Source: a virus (taxonomy: Duplodnaviria; Heunggongvirae; Uroviricota; Caudoviricetes). From it: 42,114 nt of DNA. The stretch is from IMG/VR virus record IMGVR_UViG_2875703104_000005; one strand, written 5' to 3'. Under the pieces are notes generated by a model, which saw only the letters and a program-made list of their open reading frames with translations, did not search any database and was not told the DNA's origin. Both the position numbers and the translations under genes were made by a program. The first letter of the stretch is position 1, and each line of letters begins with the position of its first letter. Of this stretch, positions 15,417-36,343 are shown piece by piece.

Positions 15417-15493
15417 TGGCGTGGCATGCAGGATTCGAACCTGCGACCAACCGCTTAGAAGGCGGTTGCTCTGTCCAACTGAGCTAATGCCAC
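15417..15493 (-). tRNA. tRNA-Arg (anticodon UCU), phage-borne
   Basis: 77-nt cloverleaf read directly: acceptor GTGGCAT/ATGCCAC, D-arm GCTC AGTTGGACA GAGC, anticodon loop CTTCTAA, T-arm GCAGG TTCGAAT CCTGC, discriminator G, CCA. Closely resembles enterobacterial argU-type tRNA. Confidence 0.8.
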
Positions 15494-32488: not shown

Positions 32489-32836
32489 TTAGTGGCGGGA
32501 GAAATAGTACACACGGAAATAAGTTACCGTCATAATCAACCGTGTCGATATCGATACGGTTGATGTTTCAATACTTTCGCGGATTACAGGGCAGACTTTG
32601 TTTGGCTGAATGCTTGAAAGCCAAGCCGCAAACTTACGAAAGGCAAGGCATATCATTAACTGTTTACCGCCAGCAGAAGGTATTTCGATTTCCGAAATAC
32701 CTTTGACAAATCTCTGTTTTAATTTAACAAATTGAGCAGCCCAAACCATACCCATGCCTTCAACGATAGGTTTCATTGGGGTGTACGGTTCGCCGTTGTG
32801 ATTGACGACATAAAGCTCTGCGCCGTGTAATGGCAC
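32489..32836 (-). pseudogene. Probable truncated remnant of a phage regulatory / anti-repressor-like gene
   Basis: 115-aa ORF whose N-terminal two thirds look like a conserved phage domain and whose C-terminus is low-complexity; abuts the moron and the inverted-repeat leader. Confidence 0.3.
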
Positions 32837-32983
32837 GTTGATAGTAGTGACAAATTTGAAACATCGCTGGTTGTAAGCCAGCAGATGCTCGTTATTTTAC
32901 GTCGCGGCACAATTTCTCGCTGCTGGCTCTTTTACACACATTAACCAAATATGGTTGATTTTAATGTTTGTCTGTGTCTATCA

Positions 32984-33000
32984 TTACCTTTGCGGTAAAT
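32984..33000. promoter_or_regulatory. Operator-like palindrome ATTACC-TTTGC-GGTAAA at the start of the left anti-repressor leader
   Basis: Marks the start of the inverted-repeat leader that precedes the Bro-N anti-repressor gene. Confidence 0.5.
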
Positions 33001-33090
33001 TTACACCGCACTCCTCTTGTGCCATAGTAATCGGGCACTGGCAAAATCCAGTGCCGGGATTGGCGTCCCGGATTACTAAAAGGCGCATTC

Positions 33091-33110
33091 ACCGCGCAAG
33101 CGGTTTTTTT
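33091..33110 (+). terminator. Leader terminator / attenuator upstream of the Bro-N anti-repressor
   Basis: Stem ACCGC/GCGGT with GCAA loop and a 7-T run, about 100 nt downstream of the operator-like site. Confidence 0.5.
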
Positions 33111-33267
33111 ATGCGTATAGCACGGCCACATTCGTATTATGGTGGGCTGTGTGGGGGCACCGAAAGGTGCGCCGGGTCCTTTTAGCCGGTTACGCCAACC
33201 CTGCACAGTTCACCACCAACCGATTGGCGTCGGTAGTGGTGATTAACCAGACTAAAAGGTAACCACT

Positions 33268-33963
33268 ATGACAGCTACAAAAAGCACGTCCATTTTTTCT
33301 TTCGAATCTCAAGCCGATATACGGGTAATCGTCATTAATGGTGAGCCATGGTTTATCGCTTCAGATGTTTGTCGGGCTATAGGCATAGCAAACCATCGAG
33401 ATGCTGTTCGAAAACTTGATGATGATGAGAAGGGCGTCGCTTCAACCGACACCCCTGGCGGTGAGCAAGAATCGATCATTATCTCCGAGTCAGGCCTCTA
33501 CACACTGATCCTCCGCTGCCGCGATGCGGTGACACCAGGCACTATCCCATACCGCTTTCGTAAATGGGTTACAGGTGAGGTTCTTCCTCAGATCCGCCGC
33601 ACCGGAAGTTACATTAAAAACTCGCTCCCGCAGGAAGAACGCATAAAGATGGTTGCCGACCAGGTAGCCAACGCCACGGCGTCAGCAGTAATGCAGGCGA
33701 TGAAGATAGAGAACAAAACCTACAGTGCCCCGCTGAAGCCCGGCTACCGCAGCCTGATTCATTCGCCGTCGGGTGTTCTCGGCCTGACGGAGAACTCACT
33801 GCTGATGAATCTGCTGAACCAGTTACAGGAAGACGGGCACGACGTATCGGGCGCGGCGGCGGAACTGACCACCATGTTCTGCTACATCGTCGGTGTGAGC
33901 AAATGCCTGCGTGATATCCAGACGCACGCGGAGTACATCAACGACAAGGCAGGGTTCTTCTGA
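33268..33963 (+). CDS. Anti-repressor, Bro-N N-terminal domain with shared C-terminal domain
   Basis: 231 aa; Bro-N pattern (IRVIVINGEPWFIASDVCRAIG ... ESGLYTLILRCR); C-terminal 80 aa identical to the C-terminus of the 35074-35730 product. Confidence 0.7.
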   Translation: MTATKSTSIFSFESQADIRVIVINGEPWFIASDVCRAIGIANHRDAVRKLDDDEKGVASTDTPGGEQESIIISESGLYTLILRCRDAVTPGTIPYRFRKWVTGEVLPQIRRTGSYIKNSLPQEERIKMVADQVANATASAVMQAMKIENKTYSAPLKPGYRSLIHSPSGVLGLTENSLLMNLLNQLQEDGHDVSGAAAELTTMFCYIVGVSKCLRDIQTHAEYINDKAGFF

Positions 33964-33990
33964 CGGGCGGCGGCACAGGGATGTGCCTTT
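33721..33990. repeat. Inverted repeat, anti-repressor C-terminal domain, left arm (partner 35048-35316)
   Basis: About 240 bp coding the shared 80-aa domain plus about 25 bp of 3' flank; only about two mismatches seen. Confidence 0.8.
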
Positions 33991-34034
33991 AAATAATTCT
34001 GTACAGATTGCAGACTGGGGGTGAATAGCGTACT

Positions 34035-34051
34035 ATTACCTCAAGGGTAAG
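34035..34051. promoter_or_regulatory. Operator-like palindrome ATTACC-TCAAG-GGTAAG upstream of the moron
   Basis: 59 bp upstream of the ATG at 34110. Confidence 0.45.
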
Positions 34052-34109
34052 AAAGCATTTTTAATCTTCCCTTCAAAACGCGTCCTGTAGCCAAACATGG
34101 GAGGACGAA

Positions 34110-34742
34110 ATGAGAACAAATACAACAAGAAAAGCGATGCCATACATTATCCCAGAAGCAGATTTCGATAGAAAACTGAACATGTCTGAGAAGAACACTA
34201 GTCACACCGAAAGCTACTTAGCGAAAGGTGTGGTTGATTTCGTTCTTCCGGGATTCACAACACCTTATGGTTATCGCCTTGTAAAATCTTGTAATGGCGA
34301 TCATTACAGAATGATTACTACCAGCGATACTCCAGAAACGGTGTATGCGGTTAAGTTAATCTTTCGGGAAGATATCGTCGAAGCCAAAAGAACATGTACG
34401 CAGATCATGGTATGGCGTACGCCTAATGTTATTCATGACCGTGCTGTTCATGGTTTGCCTCAGATTTTTTTTCAGTTCTTCCTAGAGCAATATGCGATCG
34501 TTGTATCTGATGAGCAACAAACAATCGATGGGAGAAGATTCTGGGAAAGAATGATTTCTTGGGCTATAAACACCCCAGGATATAATGTATACGTTTCAGA
34601 TGGCTCTGAAGAAGATAGACCTCTTAGCTTCATGACATCATGGGATGATTTCTATAGCCAGTGGGCTGATTTCTGTTGGGGCAGTGATAAAGATGTGCAT
34701 ACCCACAGACTACTGGTTATAAGCAAAGATAAACTGCATTAA
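34110..34742 (+). CDS. Hypothetical moron protein with its own operator-like site and terminator
   Basis: 210 aa; GGAGG RBS; operator-like palindrome 59 bp upstream; strong terminator immediately downstream; lower GC than the core genome. Confidence 0.5.
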   Translation: MRTNTTRKAMPYIIPEADFDRKLNMSEKNTSHTESYLAKGVVDFVLPGFTTPYGYRLVKSCNGDHYRMITTSDTPETVYAVKLIFREDIVEAKRTCTQIMVWRTPNVIHDRAVHGLPQIFFQFFLEQYAIVVSDEQQTIDGRRFWERMISWAINTPGYNVYVSDGSEEDRPLSFMTSWDDFYSQWADFCWGSDKDVHTHRLLVISKDKLH

Positions 34743-34745
34743 TAG

Positions 34746-34770
34746 AAGCCCGCAGCGCGGGCTTTTTTGT
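34746..34770 (+). terminator. Intrinsic terminator after the moron
   Basis: 8-bp stem AAGCCCGC/GCGGGCTT, loop AGC, then TTTTTT. Confidence 0.7.
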
Positions 34771-34840
34771 GGACGAAACAAAAGTCAGTGCTACACTCAT
34801 TGACGCCACATTGAGGTGGCTTATAGATGGAAATTTCACA

Positions 34841-35002
34841 ATGAAAAAAGCATTTGCTGCACTGTTCGTTTTGTTGTCTCTGGTAGCTTCAACTCAGGCC
34901 TTTGCCGGTCGTTGTCAGCACGACAGCGATACTGCCGCTGACGGCTCCCGCTGCGGTGGGCGTTCTGCGGATTCCCGCCCAGGCGGCGGTGGCATTCGTT
35001 AA
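34841..35002 (+). CDS. Small secreted Gly/Arg/Cys-rich peptide (53 aa)
   Basis: Signal-peptide-like N-terminus MKKAFAALFVLLSLVASTQAFA; weak RBS, so tentative. Confidence 0.3.
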   Translation: MKKAFAALFVLLSLVASTQAFAGRCQHDSDTAADGSRCGGRSADSRPGGGGIR

Positions 35003-35024
35003 AAACAAGGCCGCGAAAGCGGCC
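35001..35024 (-). terminator. Intrinsic terminator after the AntA-type gene
   Basis: Stem GGCCGC/GCGGCC, loop GAAA, then TTGTTTTT on the minus strand. Confidence 0.55.
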
Positions 35025-35038
35025 TGTGACATGTCACG
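35025..35038. repeat. 14-mer TGTGACATGTCACG, copy 3
   Basis: Immediately 3' (plus strand) of the hairpin that terminates the AntA-type gene. Confidence 0.6.
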
Positions 35039-35047
35039 ATAGTTTCG

Positions 35048-35316
35048 TTTTGCACGTCCCTGTGCCGCCGCCGTCAGAAGAACCCTGCCTTGTCGTTGAT
35101 GTACTCCGCGTGGGTCTGGATATCACGCAGGCATTTGCTCACACCGACGATGTAGCAGAACATGGTGGTCAGCTCCGCCGCCGCGCCCGATACGTCGTGC
35201 CCGTCTTCCTGTAACTGGTTCAGCAGATTCATCAGCAGTGAGTTCTCCGTCAGGCCGAGAACACCCGACGGCGAGTGAATCAGACTGCGGTAGCCGGGCT
35301 TCAGTGGGGCACTGTA
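35048..35316. repeat. Inverted repeat, anti-repressor C-terminal domain, right arm
   Basis: Reverse complement of 33721-33990 with about two mismatches. Confidence 0.8.
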
Positions 35317-35730
35317 TTCTTTTTTGTCTTCCAGCTTGATCGCCTCCATAATGGCGGGCATGAAGCCTGACAAGACCTTCTCCACCTTTGTTTCTTGTTG
35401 TCTTAAACGTTTCTCGCATTCAATGAAGTATCGGCGTATCTGGCGGCCTTTTTCGTTGCGCTCGACCATCGCAGTTTCTTTGGCCGTATCGAGGGTGAGG
35501 TGATAGTCTTTGCTACGGCGATCGCCTCCTCGACCTTTGATTTCCCGATTTGGGGAAACCAAAATATAGTCCTGATTTTCAACGAAACCATATTCAGCAA
35601 TGCGTTCTGTAATCCACGATGCAAAGCGTTTACCTACCCCAAGAAAAGTATGTAAATCGCGAGCATTAACGAGAAGAGTGGTTTCGTTGGCGATAGTGCC
35701 GTTGAATACGGGGATGAGTTGAGCGTTCAT
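35074..35730 (-). CDS. Anti-repressor, AntA-type N-terminal domain with shared C-terminal domain
   Basis: 218 aa; AntA-like N-terminus (LIPVFNGTIANETTLLVNARDLHTFLGVGKRFASWI); C-terminal 80 aa identical to the Bro-N paralog; GGAG RBS. Confidence 0.7.
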   Translation of the reverse strand: MNAQLIPVFNGTIANETTLLVNARDLHTFLGVGKRFASWITERIAEYGFVENQDYILVSPNREIKGRGGDRRSKDYHLTLDTAKETAMVERNEKGRQIRRYFIECEKRLRQQETKVEKVLSGFMPAIMEAIKLEDKKEYSAPLKPGYRSLIHSPSGVLGLTENSLLMNLLNQLQEDGHDVSGAAAELTTMFCYIVGVSKCLRDIQTHAEYINDKAGFF

Positions 35731-35888
35731 GATGGCGTCTCCACTTAGCGAATTACATCACCACCGCTGAGACCAATCAGATGGTGGTGAACTGAACGGA
35801 GTTGGTCTTACCGGCCTAAGTGGTACCGGCGTCCTTTCGGACCCCCATTCAGCCCACCATAATTCTGGCATGACTGTGCTATACGCAT

Positions 35889-35910
35889 AAAAAAACCACG
35901 TCTGGCGTGG
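35889..35910 (-). terminator. Leader terminator / attenuator upstream of the AntA-type anti-repressor
   Basis: Stem CCACG/CGTGG with a 7-T run at the equivalent leader position; stem sequence differs from the left arm but pairing is preserved. Confidence 0.5.
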
Positions 35911-36000
35911 TATGCGCCACTTAGTAATCCGGGAGACCAATCCCGGCACTGGATTTTGCCAGTGCCCGATTACTATGGCACAAGAGGAGTGCGGTGTAAA

Positions 36001-36017
36001 TTTACCGCAAAGGTAAA
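36001..36017. promoter_or_regulatory. Operator-like palindrome TTTACC-GCAAA-GGTAAA at the start of the right anti-repressor leader
   Basis: Mirror copy of the 32984-33000 site, in the right-arm leader driving the minus-strand AntA-type gene. Confidence 0.5.
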
Positions 36018-36047
36018 TATAAGCACTCCACTTGGTAATTACAAACC

Positions 36048-36320
36048 TTATCTGGTTTGTTTTCGTAATTGTTCGGCACAATAGTCGAGATGTGTTTGCA
36101 GATCCCGCATAGACATCTGTGAGCTGGTGACGTAGTTAATCAGTGCAGTCAGTTCGGCAAGTGGACCATCGACATTAAATCCATCCTTATCGAGATCCCG
36201 GAGTAATTTCATCAAGTGCGATCCCTCCACCAGTGACCTGACGCCTCCCGGCGTGTGAATCCTTTCGGTAAATCCCTCTTCCAGTGGATAGTGATACTGC
36301 TGCATCTTAATCTTCTCCAT
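36048..36320 (-). CDS. Small anti-repressor-like protein behind a LexA box
   Basis: 90 aa; homologous to the shared C-terminal domain of the two large anti-repressors (PL--G----IH-P-GV ... ELT ... RD-QTH--Y spacing conserved); consensus LexA box 8 bp upstream of its ATG. Confidence 0.6.
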   Translation of the reverse strand: MEKIKMQQYHYPLEEGFTERIHTPGGVRSLVEGSHLMKLLRDLDKDGFNVDGPLAELTALINYVTSSQMSMRDLQTHLDYCAEQLRKQTR

Positions 36321-36327
36321 GCAATAA

Positions 36328-36343
36328 CTGTATATTTATACAG
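36328..36343 (-). promoter_or_regulatory. LexA box (SOS operator)
   Basis: CTGTATATTTATACAG with flanking A/T matches CTGT-N8-ACAG; 8 bp upstream of the ATG of the 36048-36320 minus-strand gene. Confidence 0.75.

Follow-up and report, generated by a model that had tools for sequence, protein, structure and literature searches.

The nearest described relatives of the locus analysed here are the immI regions of phages P1 and P7, in which an operator at the promoter is followed by an a1/b1 leader, a tRNA-like C4 RNA, a2/b2 sites placed on a Shine-Dalgarno sequence, and an anti-repressor gene. In the GenBank record of P1 the order is C1 operator Oc4, promoters, a1, b1, the 77-nt c4, a2, b2, icd and ant, and it is the ribosome-binding site of icd, a small ORF overlapping the start of ant and translationally coupled to it, that is regulated. 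Differences between the recognition sites of P1 and P7 reportedly account for heteroimmunity (Citron and Schuster, in 1990), and Hartmann et al., in 1995, are said to have found the processing of P1 c4 to be RNase P-dependent. Among the family descriptions, that of P1 c4 dates from 1990, that of IsrK from 2008-2016, and those of the c4 and c4-a1b1 motifs from 2010 (PMC2864571).

The second relative is isrK of the Salmonella prophage Gifsy-1; members of this family are described as ~77-nt Hfq-associated sRNAs that activate anti-repressor translation in trans. In Gifsy-1, IsrK is a short, terminated RNA, and read-through from its promoter yields the mRNA of the anti-repressor, anrP (Hershko-Shalev et al., 2016; PMC4825925). 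The compensatory mutants G28A/C162U and G31A/C159U proved base pairing between the centre of IsrK and the leader that follows it, and IsrK supplied in trans lifts anrP translation ~100-fold or more (PMC4825925). A 45-codon uORF (orf45) is coupled to anrP, the output of the system is the antiterminator AntQ, and a processed RNA, STnc1160, arises downstream of IsrK, from the region that holds C4 in our sequence (PMC4825925). The authors of that study pointed to SeqA/CI of the satellite phage P4 as a structural parallel, with SeqA as the homologue of IsrK (PMC4825925). The likeness of P4 seqA-CI-seqC to the present locus is one of logic: a processed leader RNA pairs with copies of its target lying upstream and downstream of it. 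However, the P4 CI RNA acts by premature transcription termination of the replication genes, whereas the target of C4 here is the ribosome-binding site of an anti-repressor. P22 immI is likewise a secondary immunity region in which a small RNA limits an anti-repressor; there, however, the RNA (sar) is truly antisense, being transcribed in cis off the other strand, and the larger share of the control falls to the repressor proteins Arc and Mnt.

Two IsrK-C4 leaders in a phiV10-type prophage

The window, by which we mean the whole stretch of 42,114 nt that was analysed, is an Escherichia coli prophage of the phiV10/epsilon15 type (Uetakevirus type), integrated, unlike the plasmid prophage P1. 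At least 32 complete E. coli genomes, e.g., NZ_CP030111 (strain MCJCHV-1), carry its anti-repressor segment with 100% identity, and phiV10, TL-2011b and other epsilon15-type Uetakevirus phages have parts of it at 94-99% identity. The whole window was scanned with Rfam covariance models (gathering scores: isrK 50, C4 45, c4-a1b1 46.7 bits), and four matches exceeded the gathering score, two to isrK and two to C4, with E-values from 1e-9 to 4e-15, well outside anything that chance would give. Each leader has the same order of elements: operator-like palindrome, promoter, IsrK (with a1, b1 and the terminator), C4 (with a' and b'), a2, b2 together with the Shine-Dalgarno sequence, and the anti-repressor gene. 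The features are as follows.

Module A
32983-32999, unstranded: operator-like palindrome ATTACC-N5-GGTAAA, abutting the -35 element of the IsrK-A promoter, centre at about -44 from IsrK +1
33000-33028, plus strand: promoter-like site A, -35 TTTACA, 17-nt spacer, TG-CATAGT -10 (consensus scan)
33035-33110, plus strand: IsrK-A sRNA, full-length match to the Rfam RF01394 model, 77.9 bits, E 3.7e-15
33035-33054, plus strand: IsrK-A hairpin 1; arms GGCACTGG (33034-33041) and CCAGTGCC (33048-33055), perfectly paired
33055-33070, plus strand: IsrK-A hairpin 2, site a1 in its loop
33091-33104, plus strand: IsrK-A terminator ACCGC-GCAA-GCGGT, then a 7-U run at 33104-33110
33135-33220, plus strand: C4-A antisense RNA, Rfam RF01695, 77.7 bits, E 1.1e-13
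33268-33963, plus strand: anti-repressor gene A, 231 aa, Pfam Bro-N 2.3e-21, PHROG anti-repressor Ant 3.7e-63

Module B
36000-36018, unstranded: operator-like perfect palindrome ATTTACC-GCAAA-GGTAAAT, adjoining the -35 element of the IsrK-B promoter, mirror of the site at 32983 (read from the sequence)
36000-35972, minus strand: promoter-like site B, TTTACA-17-TG-CATAGT (consensus scan)
35965-35889, minus strand: IsrK-B sRNA, full-length match to the RF01394 model, 67.7 bits, E 1.6e-12
35911-35895, minus strand: IsrK-B terminator ACCACG-CCAGA-CGUGGU, then a U-run
35864-35780, minus strand: C4-B antisense RNA, RF01695, 61.2 bits, E 1.4e-9
35730-35074, minus strand: anti-repressor gene B, 218 aa, Pfam AntA 3.6e-27, PHROG anti-repressor Ant 1e-67

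The two leaders form the arms of an inverted repeat and are 86% identical over 354 aligned columns, the differences being grouped in four short blocks and in the stem of the terminator. The predicted starts, about 7 nt downstream of the promoter-like sites, fall at ~33035 (plus strand) and ~35965 (minus strand), and in module A the first position of the isrK model falls exactly on this predicted start. Sites of the form ATTACC-N5-GGTAAT with at most one mismatch occur 10 times in the window (0.07 expected), and three of them flank an HTH repressor-like gene at 5744-5160, which encodes 194 aa.

Both leaders have the architecture of the IsrK family, i.e., two 5' hairpins, a single-stranded linker, and a Rho-independent terminator with its U-run (folds and terminator scan). 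The hairpin with a 7-U run that an earlier, sequence-only reading had placed in each leader is indeed there, and the conserved hairpin which that reading had noted upstream of it, at 33034-33055, is IsrK hairpin 1. The terminator stems differ in sequence (5 bp in A, 6 bp in B), both are perfectly paired, and both hairpins scored terminator-like in the consensus scan. By homology, IsrK-A and IsrK-B should be transcribed and terminated as RNAs of 76-77 nt; the short terminated RNA proposed earlier thus stands as regards its terminator, which ends IsrK, and is to be corrected as regards its length, previously given as about 100 nt. The likeness to Gifsy-1 extends to the same three hairpins with the terminator, the same numbering, and an anti-repressor as the regulated product.

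A permissive scan gave further matches to the c4-a1b1 model (RF03163), 45.1 bits at 33022-33074 (plus strand) and 39.9 bits at 35926-35978 (minus strand), both just short of the gathering score of 46.7; they fall on the 5' part of each IsrK, and the model is described as "a1, b1 targets of C4 antisense RNA". The a1b1 leader of P1 itself scores 51 bits with c4-a1b1 and a sub-threshold 35 bits with isrK, the latter match including a terminator-like hairpin and a U-run, which indicates that IsrK is the a1b1 leader in the form of an sRNA. In the window, unlike in P1, this leader has the full IsrK form with a strong terminator.

For comparison with the two C4 matches listed, c4 of P1 scores 68.8 bits on RF01695. 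When the boundaries of the annotated 77-nt P1 c4 are transferred through the model alignment, the mature RNAs are predicted at ~33141-33217 (C4-A, 77 nt) and ~35858-35783 (C4-B, 76 nt), each with a closing stem followed by ACCA. By analogy with P1, C4 is probably cut from the leader by RNase P to ~77 nt. This RNA, the central regulator, had been overlooked in the sequence-only reading although it lies at 33135-33220 (mirror copy 35864-35780) inside the interval then described; so had its two recognition elements and the fact that IsrK as well as the ribosome-binding site of ant contains their matches.

The anti-repressors differ from Ant1/Ant2 of P1/P7 in being Bro-N and AntA proteins. The N-terminal domain is Bro-N in A and AntA in B, whereas the C-terminal ~80 aa are identical in both and the 3' ends of the genes, within a large inverted repeat, are 96% identical at the DNA level. 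Considering the different families of the N-terminal domains, the modules were put together from separate sources and did not arise by duplication on the spot. Behind a LexA box there is a third copy of the shared C-terminal domain, standing alone. In contrast to P1, the window has no icd and the C4 target lies directly on the ant site; control by way of icd belongs to the P1 operon and does not define the RNA family. Between the ant genes, products of 210 aa and 52 aa are encoded, for which PADLOC gave no match.

Recognition sites and their covariation

Each module contains two short recognition sites, a and b, in three places: in IsrK (a1, b1), as complements in C4 (a', b'), and in the ant leader (a2, b2).

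Module A, plus strand
33060-33066: a1, UUGGCGU, loop of IsrK hairpin 2
33076-33083: b1, CUAAAAGG, IsrK linker
33178-33185: b', CCUUUUAG, C4 hairpin loop
33192-33198: a', ACGCCAA, single-stranded joint of C4
33224-33230: a2, UUGGCGU, ant-A leader, after C4
33252-33259: b2, CUAAAAGG, containing the Shine-Dalgarno sequence AAGG, 8 nt before the ATG at 33268

Module B, minus strand
35940-35934: a1, UUGGUCU, IsrK-B
35924-35917: b1, CUAAGUGG, IsrK-B
35823-35816: b', CCACUUAG, C4-B loop
35808-35802: a', AGACCAA, C4-B joint
35776-35770: a2, UUGGUCU, ant-B leader
35748-35741: b2, CUAAGUGG, overlapping the Shine-Dalgarno sequence GGAG, before the ATG at 35730

Within the window, each C4 finds exact complements of its 8-nt and 7-nt elements nowhere but in its own IsrK and its own ant leader. 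Module B deviates from module A by two bases per recognition site, and these are altered jointly in all three partners. The predicted duplex energy of target A is -16.7 kcal/mol with C4-A versus -4.6 with C4-B, and that of target B is -17.9 kcal/mol with C4-B versus -7.4 with C4-A. Since both sites differ in all three partners, the modules should not cross-react, and, judging from these sequences, each C4/IsrK pair should act on its own ant gene only. In P1 and P7 the differing recognition sites distinguish two phages; here they distinguish two modules carried by one genome, an arrangement that sets the window apart from P1.

The sequence-only reading had suggested a covariation analysis of homologous leaders, which proved positive; the recognition sites, more than the stem of the terminator, gave the strongest signal. 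The conserved 5' motif of IsrK, used as an exact pattern, was found in at least 120 viral contigs. We compared 90 distinct leaders among the matches listed, and the C4 loop could be located in 88. The a1/a'/a2 relation was exact in 90/90 leaders among the matches listed, in three variants (CGU, UCU, AAC), with a1 identical to a2 in all 90. Allowing G-U pairs, pairing of b' with b1 extended over 8 nt or more in 83 of the 88 leaders among these listed matches, and so did its pairing with b2 beside the start codon, likewise in 83 of 88; random non-cognate combinations reached such pairing in 4% (b1) and 17% (b2) of trials. The 88 leaders among the matches listed comprise 46 combinations of a and b specificity, built from three a variants and dozens of b variants, and virtually all homologues among the matches listed have b2 lying over the Shine-Dalgarno sequence.

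As for the terminator, the same 88 leaders among the listed matches carry 40 distinct hairpins, none with a stem shorter than 5 bp and each leading into a run of T, which agrees with the earlier claim that stems differing in sequence with pairing maintained reflect selection on RNA structure. The three-way covariation at the recognition sites is stronger evidence of function than the terminator stems. When 57 IsrK sequences were aligned with MAFFT and folded jointly with RNAalifold, both 5' hairpins (1 and 2) came out with compensatory pairs, hairpin 1 having compensatory changes at three pairs. The terminator was not recovered from this 57-sequence alignment, because variable loop lengths shift the stems out of register, and terminators in the homologues were counted by a per-sequence hairpin search instead.

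Among the loci with two modules (matches listed plus the window), four of five differ in at least one site, and the window is one of the four. In the fifth, locus L117, the sites of both IsrK copies are identical, the second copy running off the locus end; strict orthogonality of co-resident modules as a universal rule was rejected on account of these copies.

RNA folding, the other check suggested earlier, also gave a positive result. The full leaders A and B have minimum free energies of -102.0 and -99.7 kcal/mol (z = -4.65 and -4.97 versus dinucleotide shuffles), an energy reached by 0 of 200 shuffled sequences. In the minimum-free-energy structure of the read-through leader, IsrK positions 26-32 pair with 158-164 and positions 42-49 with 144-151, and this cis-paired fold is predicted to exceed in stability, by ~9-12 kcal/mol, what IsrK, C4 and the flanking segments reach together when each is folded by itself. 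The fold of leader A includes the pairs G28:C162 and G31:C159, and in copy B the second pair is flipped to C31:G159; as these pairs fall in the a1:a' helix of the window fold, it is this helix that the Gifsy-1 mutants probe. In the cis-paired conformer predicted here the ant Shine-Dalgarno sequence is largely unpaired, and in Gifsy-1 the cis-paired conformer is translationally silent (PMC4825925), so that the sign of the cis effect is uncertain.

Mode of action and competing explanations

Family membership, complementarity of the sites, three-way covariation and predicted folds are established for both leaders. Taken together, they make it very probable that each leader is an RNA immunity module of the P1 immI type, in which IsrK and C4 control the anti-repressor. 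Transcription, termination, processing, translational repression and de-repression by IsrK may be outlined by homology with P1 and Gifsy-1. A sigma-70 promoter beside the operator-like palindrome would start the RNA at ~33035 or ~35965, and many transcripts would end at the intrinsic terminator, giving the 76-77-nt IsrK. Read-through transcripts would carry C4 and ant, and C4, with its tRNA-like fold, would be released from them. Its loop b' and joint a' would then pair with b2 and a2 in the ant leader, and, because b2 contains the Shine-Dalgarno sequence, this would mask it and block translation of the anti-repressor, leaving the prophage quiescent. IsrK, whose a1 and b1 are exact copies of the target sites and which is for this reason expected to pair with C4, could do so either in cis, on the read-through RNA, or in trans, as the short sRNA; an excess of IsrK should free the ant ribosome-binding site, as in the Gifsy-1 experiments. 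The terminator would also attenuate, because only read-through transcripts carry C4 and ant. The earlier proposal that the leader gates the anti-repressor as a riboregulator or attenuator is thus in line with the matches to the isrK and C4 families and with the C4 target on the ant Shine-Dalgarno sequence. In Gifsy-1, co-expression of STnc1160 failed to relieve the toxicity of IsrK (PMC4825925), and a simple titration model does not fit this result.

A different division of labour can be considered, in which, as in P4, C4 binding to the nascent a1/b1 decides on termination of IsrK, control of ant is mainly transcriptional, and IsrK is a by-product. The terminator does sit between a1/b1 and C4, like the succession of seqA, terminator and CI in P4, and the Gifsy-1 authors raised the idea for STnc1160 (PMC4825925). 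Moreover, an alternative hairpin of the nascent RNA is predicted, in which GCGC at 33084-33087, just 3' of b1, pairs with the 5' strand and loop of the terminator; it is predicted in most of the nascent leaders among the matches listed. The read-through fold also contains a helix flanking the terminator (CGCAU/AUGCG), for which pairings of at least 6 nt are found in 74% of cognate versus 38% of non-cognate combinations (duplex energy p = 0.03); the signal is weak, because the sequences are related, and we regard it as suggestive. On the other hand, the alternative hairpin is itself weak (~-6 kcal/mol) and its covariation is not significant (p = 0.08), while in virtually all homologues among the matches listed b2 lies over the Shine-Dalgarno sequence, an arrangement that speaks for occlusion of translation, as annotated for P1 c4. 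All this makes P4-type attenuation as the main mode of control rather unlikely; attenuation and translational control are not mutually exclusive and could coexist. An anti-terminator hairpin is not claimed here, cognate and non-cognate duplex energies being similar (p = 0.08).

Still less probable, in our estimate, is coupling through a small upstream ORF, as demonstrated for orf45-anrP in Gifsy-1 (PMC4825925), where IsrK would activate translation of an ORF lying over the C4 region and the ribosomes would then initiate on ant. Copy A does have an ORF of 35 codons, which starts at 33139 from a conserved AUG at the 5' end of C4 and stops 21 nt before ant-A, but the same frame in copy B stops after 3 codons, and an ORF ending near the ant start is found in only 15 of the 88 leaders among the matches listed, with lengths from 3 to more than 50 codons. 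Nor is there an ORF between b2 and ant in either module, since b2 is the ant Shine-Dalgarno sequence. According to a 2025 review, the nucleotide sequence of orf45 is conserved and its amino-acid sequence variable; such a pattern is the signature of an RNA gene. With 35 versus 3 codons, and with the ant Shine-Dalgarno sequence itself covered by b2, coupling differs in its details from that in Gifsy-1 and P1. A conserved orf45-like uORF was rejected as a feature of these leaders, in view of the 3 codons in copy B and the 15/88 leaders among the matches listed; the uORF of Gifsy-1 is not conserved in the window.

Two further explanations we hold to be very improbable. The sequence-only reading had drawn an analogy with P22 immI, where antisense sar RNA and the Arc and Mnt repressors exert control; it shares with the window the general theme of an ant gene behind an operator-like site and a small RNA, but this is the wrong family. 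Both RNAs of the window lie on the sense strand of the leader; no match to sar RNA was found by Rfam anywhere in the window, Arc/Mnt were absent in Pfam scans of six ORFs from 32492 to 36320, and the consensus scan showed no opposite-strand promoter-like site within the leaders. The true homologues are P1/P7 immI (c4) and Gifsy-1 isrK and, by logic, P4 seqA-CI-seqC. The similarity of the leaders could also be ascribed to a recent inverted duplication without function, the paired differences in the terminator having arisen by chance; the leaders do lie inside the large inverted repeat that contains the nearly identical ant 3' ends. That explanation is contradicted by three observations: the differences are concentrated in sites that change jointly at three places per module, 90 leaders among the matches listed, with 46 combinations of specificity, obey this rule too, and the ant N-terminal domains come from different families. 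On the whole, the earlier interpretation is partly supported: it was right about the terminated sRNA and about riboregulation.

Place among known RNA switches and significance

Neither leader is out of the ordinary: both represent an RNA switch already known from phages, and they leave the current understanding of its mechanism unchanged. Modestly new are only the duplicated, apparently orthogonal arrangement and the missing annotation. The RefSeq records have no RNA gene annotated at either leader position, so that two IsrK and two C4 genes are absent from the RefSeq annotation of at least 32 complete E. coli genomes. The phiV10 record marks nothing more there than one "putative rho-independent terminator" and one "putative anti-immunity protein", and in phiV10-type phages the IsrK/C4 parts have stood unannotated since 2005. 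The IsrK literature (Gifsy-1) and the c4 literature (P1) are descriptions of one module, and yet a 2025 review still enters IsrK and c4 as unrelated items.

We put forward, tentatively and with somewhat more doubt than conviction, a joint reading in three parts: the two modules as orthogonal RNA locks, the a and b sites as a two-site address code, and IsrK as an RNA titrating C4, with a switch point set by the terminator. If true, orthogonal locks would let one prophage gate two anti-repressors independently, their sensor domains (Bro-N and AntA) being different and their C-terminal effector domain identical; the a/b sites would be a combinatorial address code preventing cross-talk between co-resident prophages; and IsrK, by mimicking the target, would titrate C4, the efficiency of the terminator setting the switch point. 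The occurrence of P1-style RNA immunity in a Uetakevirus-type prophage is a reminder of how far this module travels, and the pair of modules, between which no cross-reaction is expected, offers a natural test bed for RNA-RNA specificity arising from two short kissing contacts.

Operator-like palindromes

The palindrome ATTACC-N5-GGTAAT is present in 10 copies in the window at no more than one mismatch, against 0.07 expected, and a further operator-like palindrome lies near the second module.

Operator-like palindromes in the window
5025, 5087, 5799, 8086, 8148, 12651, 15815, 32983, 34035, 36382: ATTACC-N5-GGTAAT, 17 bp each, at most one mismatch
36000-36018: additional operator-like palindrome

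Three ATTACC-N5-GGTAAT sites lie at the flanks of an HTH_3 repressor-like gene on the minus strand (5744-5160). At each promoter of IsrK, the short terminated sRNA, one palindrome abuts the -35 element, its centre being at about -44 relative to the start. The palindromes look like a dispersed set of operators for the main repressor of the prophage. The arrangement at the IsrK promoters would then parallel that of phage P1, in which the operator Oc4 of the C1 repressor is located at the c4 promoter.

Helices in the read-through leader

A short helix, CGCAU/AUGCG (33085-33089 with 33111-33115, mirrored in copy B), brackets the IsrK terminator and its U-run, and is possible only in the read-through RNA, which continues into C4 and the anti-repressor gene (ant). 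Fold prediction shows the helix in copy A and copy B alike, and it is commoner in cognate pairs, i.e., partners from one leader (74% vs. 38%, with weak statistical support, p = 0.03). In the P1 leader an equivalent, GCGGACA/UGUCCGU, can be drawn by eye.

Between a2 and b2, the C4 target sites in the ant leader, there is a GUGGUGA sequence complementary to UCACCAC, which forms the 3' side of the closing stem in C4 (region 33210-33246; mirror 35790-35755); in the modeled read-through fold this pairing would place a2 in a hairpin loop. An equivalent with covarying sequence, GCAGG/CCUGC, was found by eye in P1.

Anti-repressor genes and their neighborhood

The 3' ends of the converging ant genes (33708-33966 and 35071-35329) share 96% DNA identity, but at the N-terminus one product has a Bro-N domain and the other an AntA domain, from a different family. 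This pattern points to gene conversion or a shuffling of domains between the two genes. What is left of a third anti-repressor, with a P22_AR_N domain and annotated in RefSeq as a pseudogene that is missing its C-terminus, is located immediately upstream of module A (32492-32836, minus strand). Two cargo genes lie between the ant genes; a tRNA-Arg gene (anticodon TCT) is also found inside the window (15417-15493, minus strand).

Cargo genes
34110-34742, plus strand: cargo gene 1, 210-aa protein, phrog_1349 (unknown function)
34844-35002, plus strand: cargo gene 2, 52-aa peptide, rich in Gly, whose N-terminus resembles a signal peptide

The 210-aa protein has neither a Pfam nor a PADLOC match; the palindrome at 34035 is upstream of its gene.

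Both Ant proteins have in common their C-terminal ~85 aa, of which a 90-aa ORF (36048-36320, minus strand; phrog_450) is a stand-alone paralogue with 44% identity. Directly upstream of this ORF is a near-consensus LexA box, CTGTATATTTATACAG (36328-36343). Because of this paralogue and the LexA box preceding it, the prophage seems to have one effector domain in three proteins, one of them SOS-controlled and two RNA-gated.
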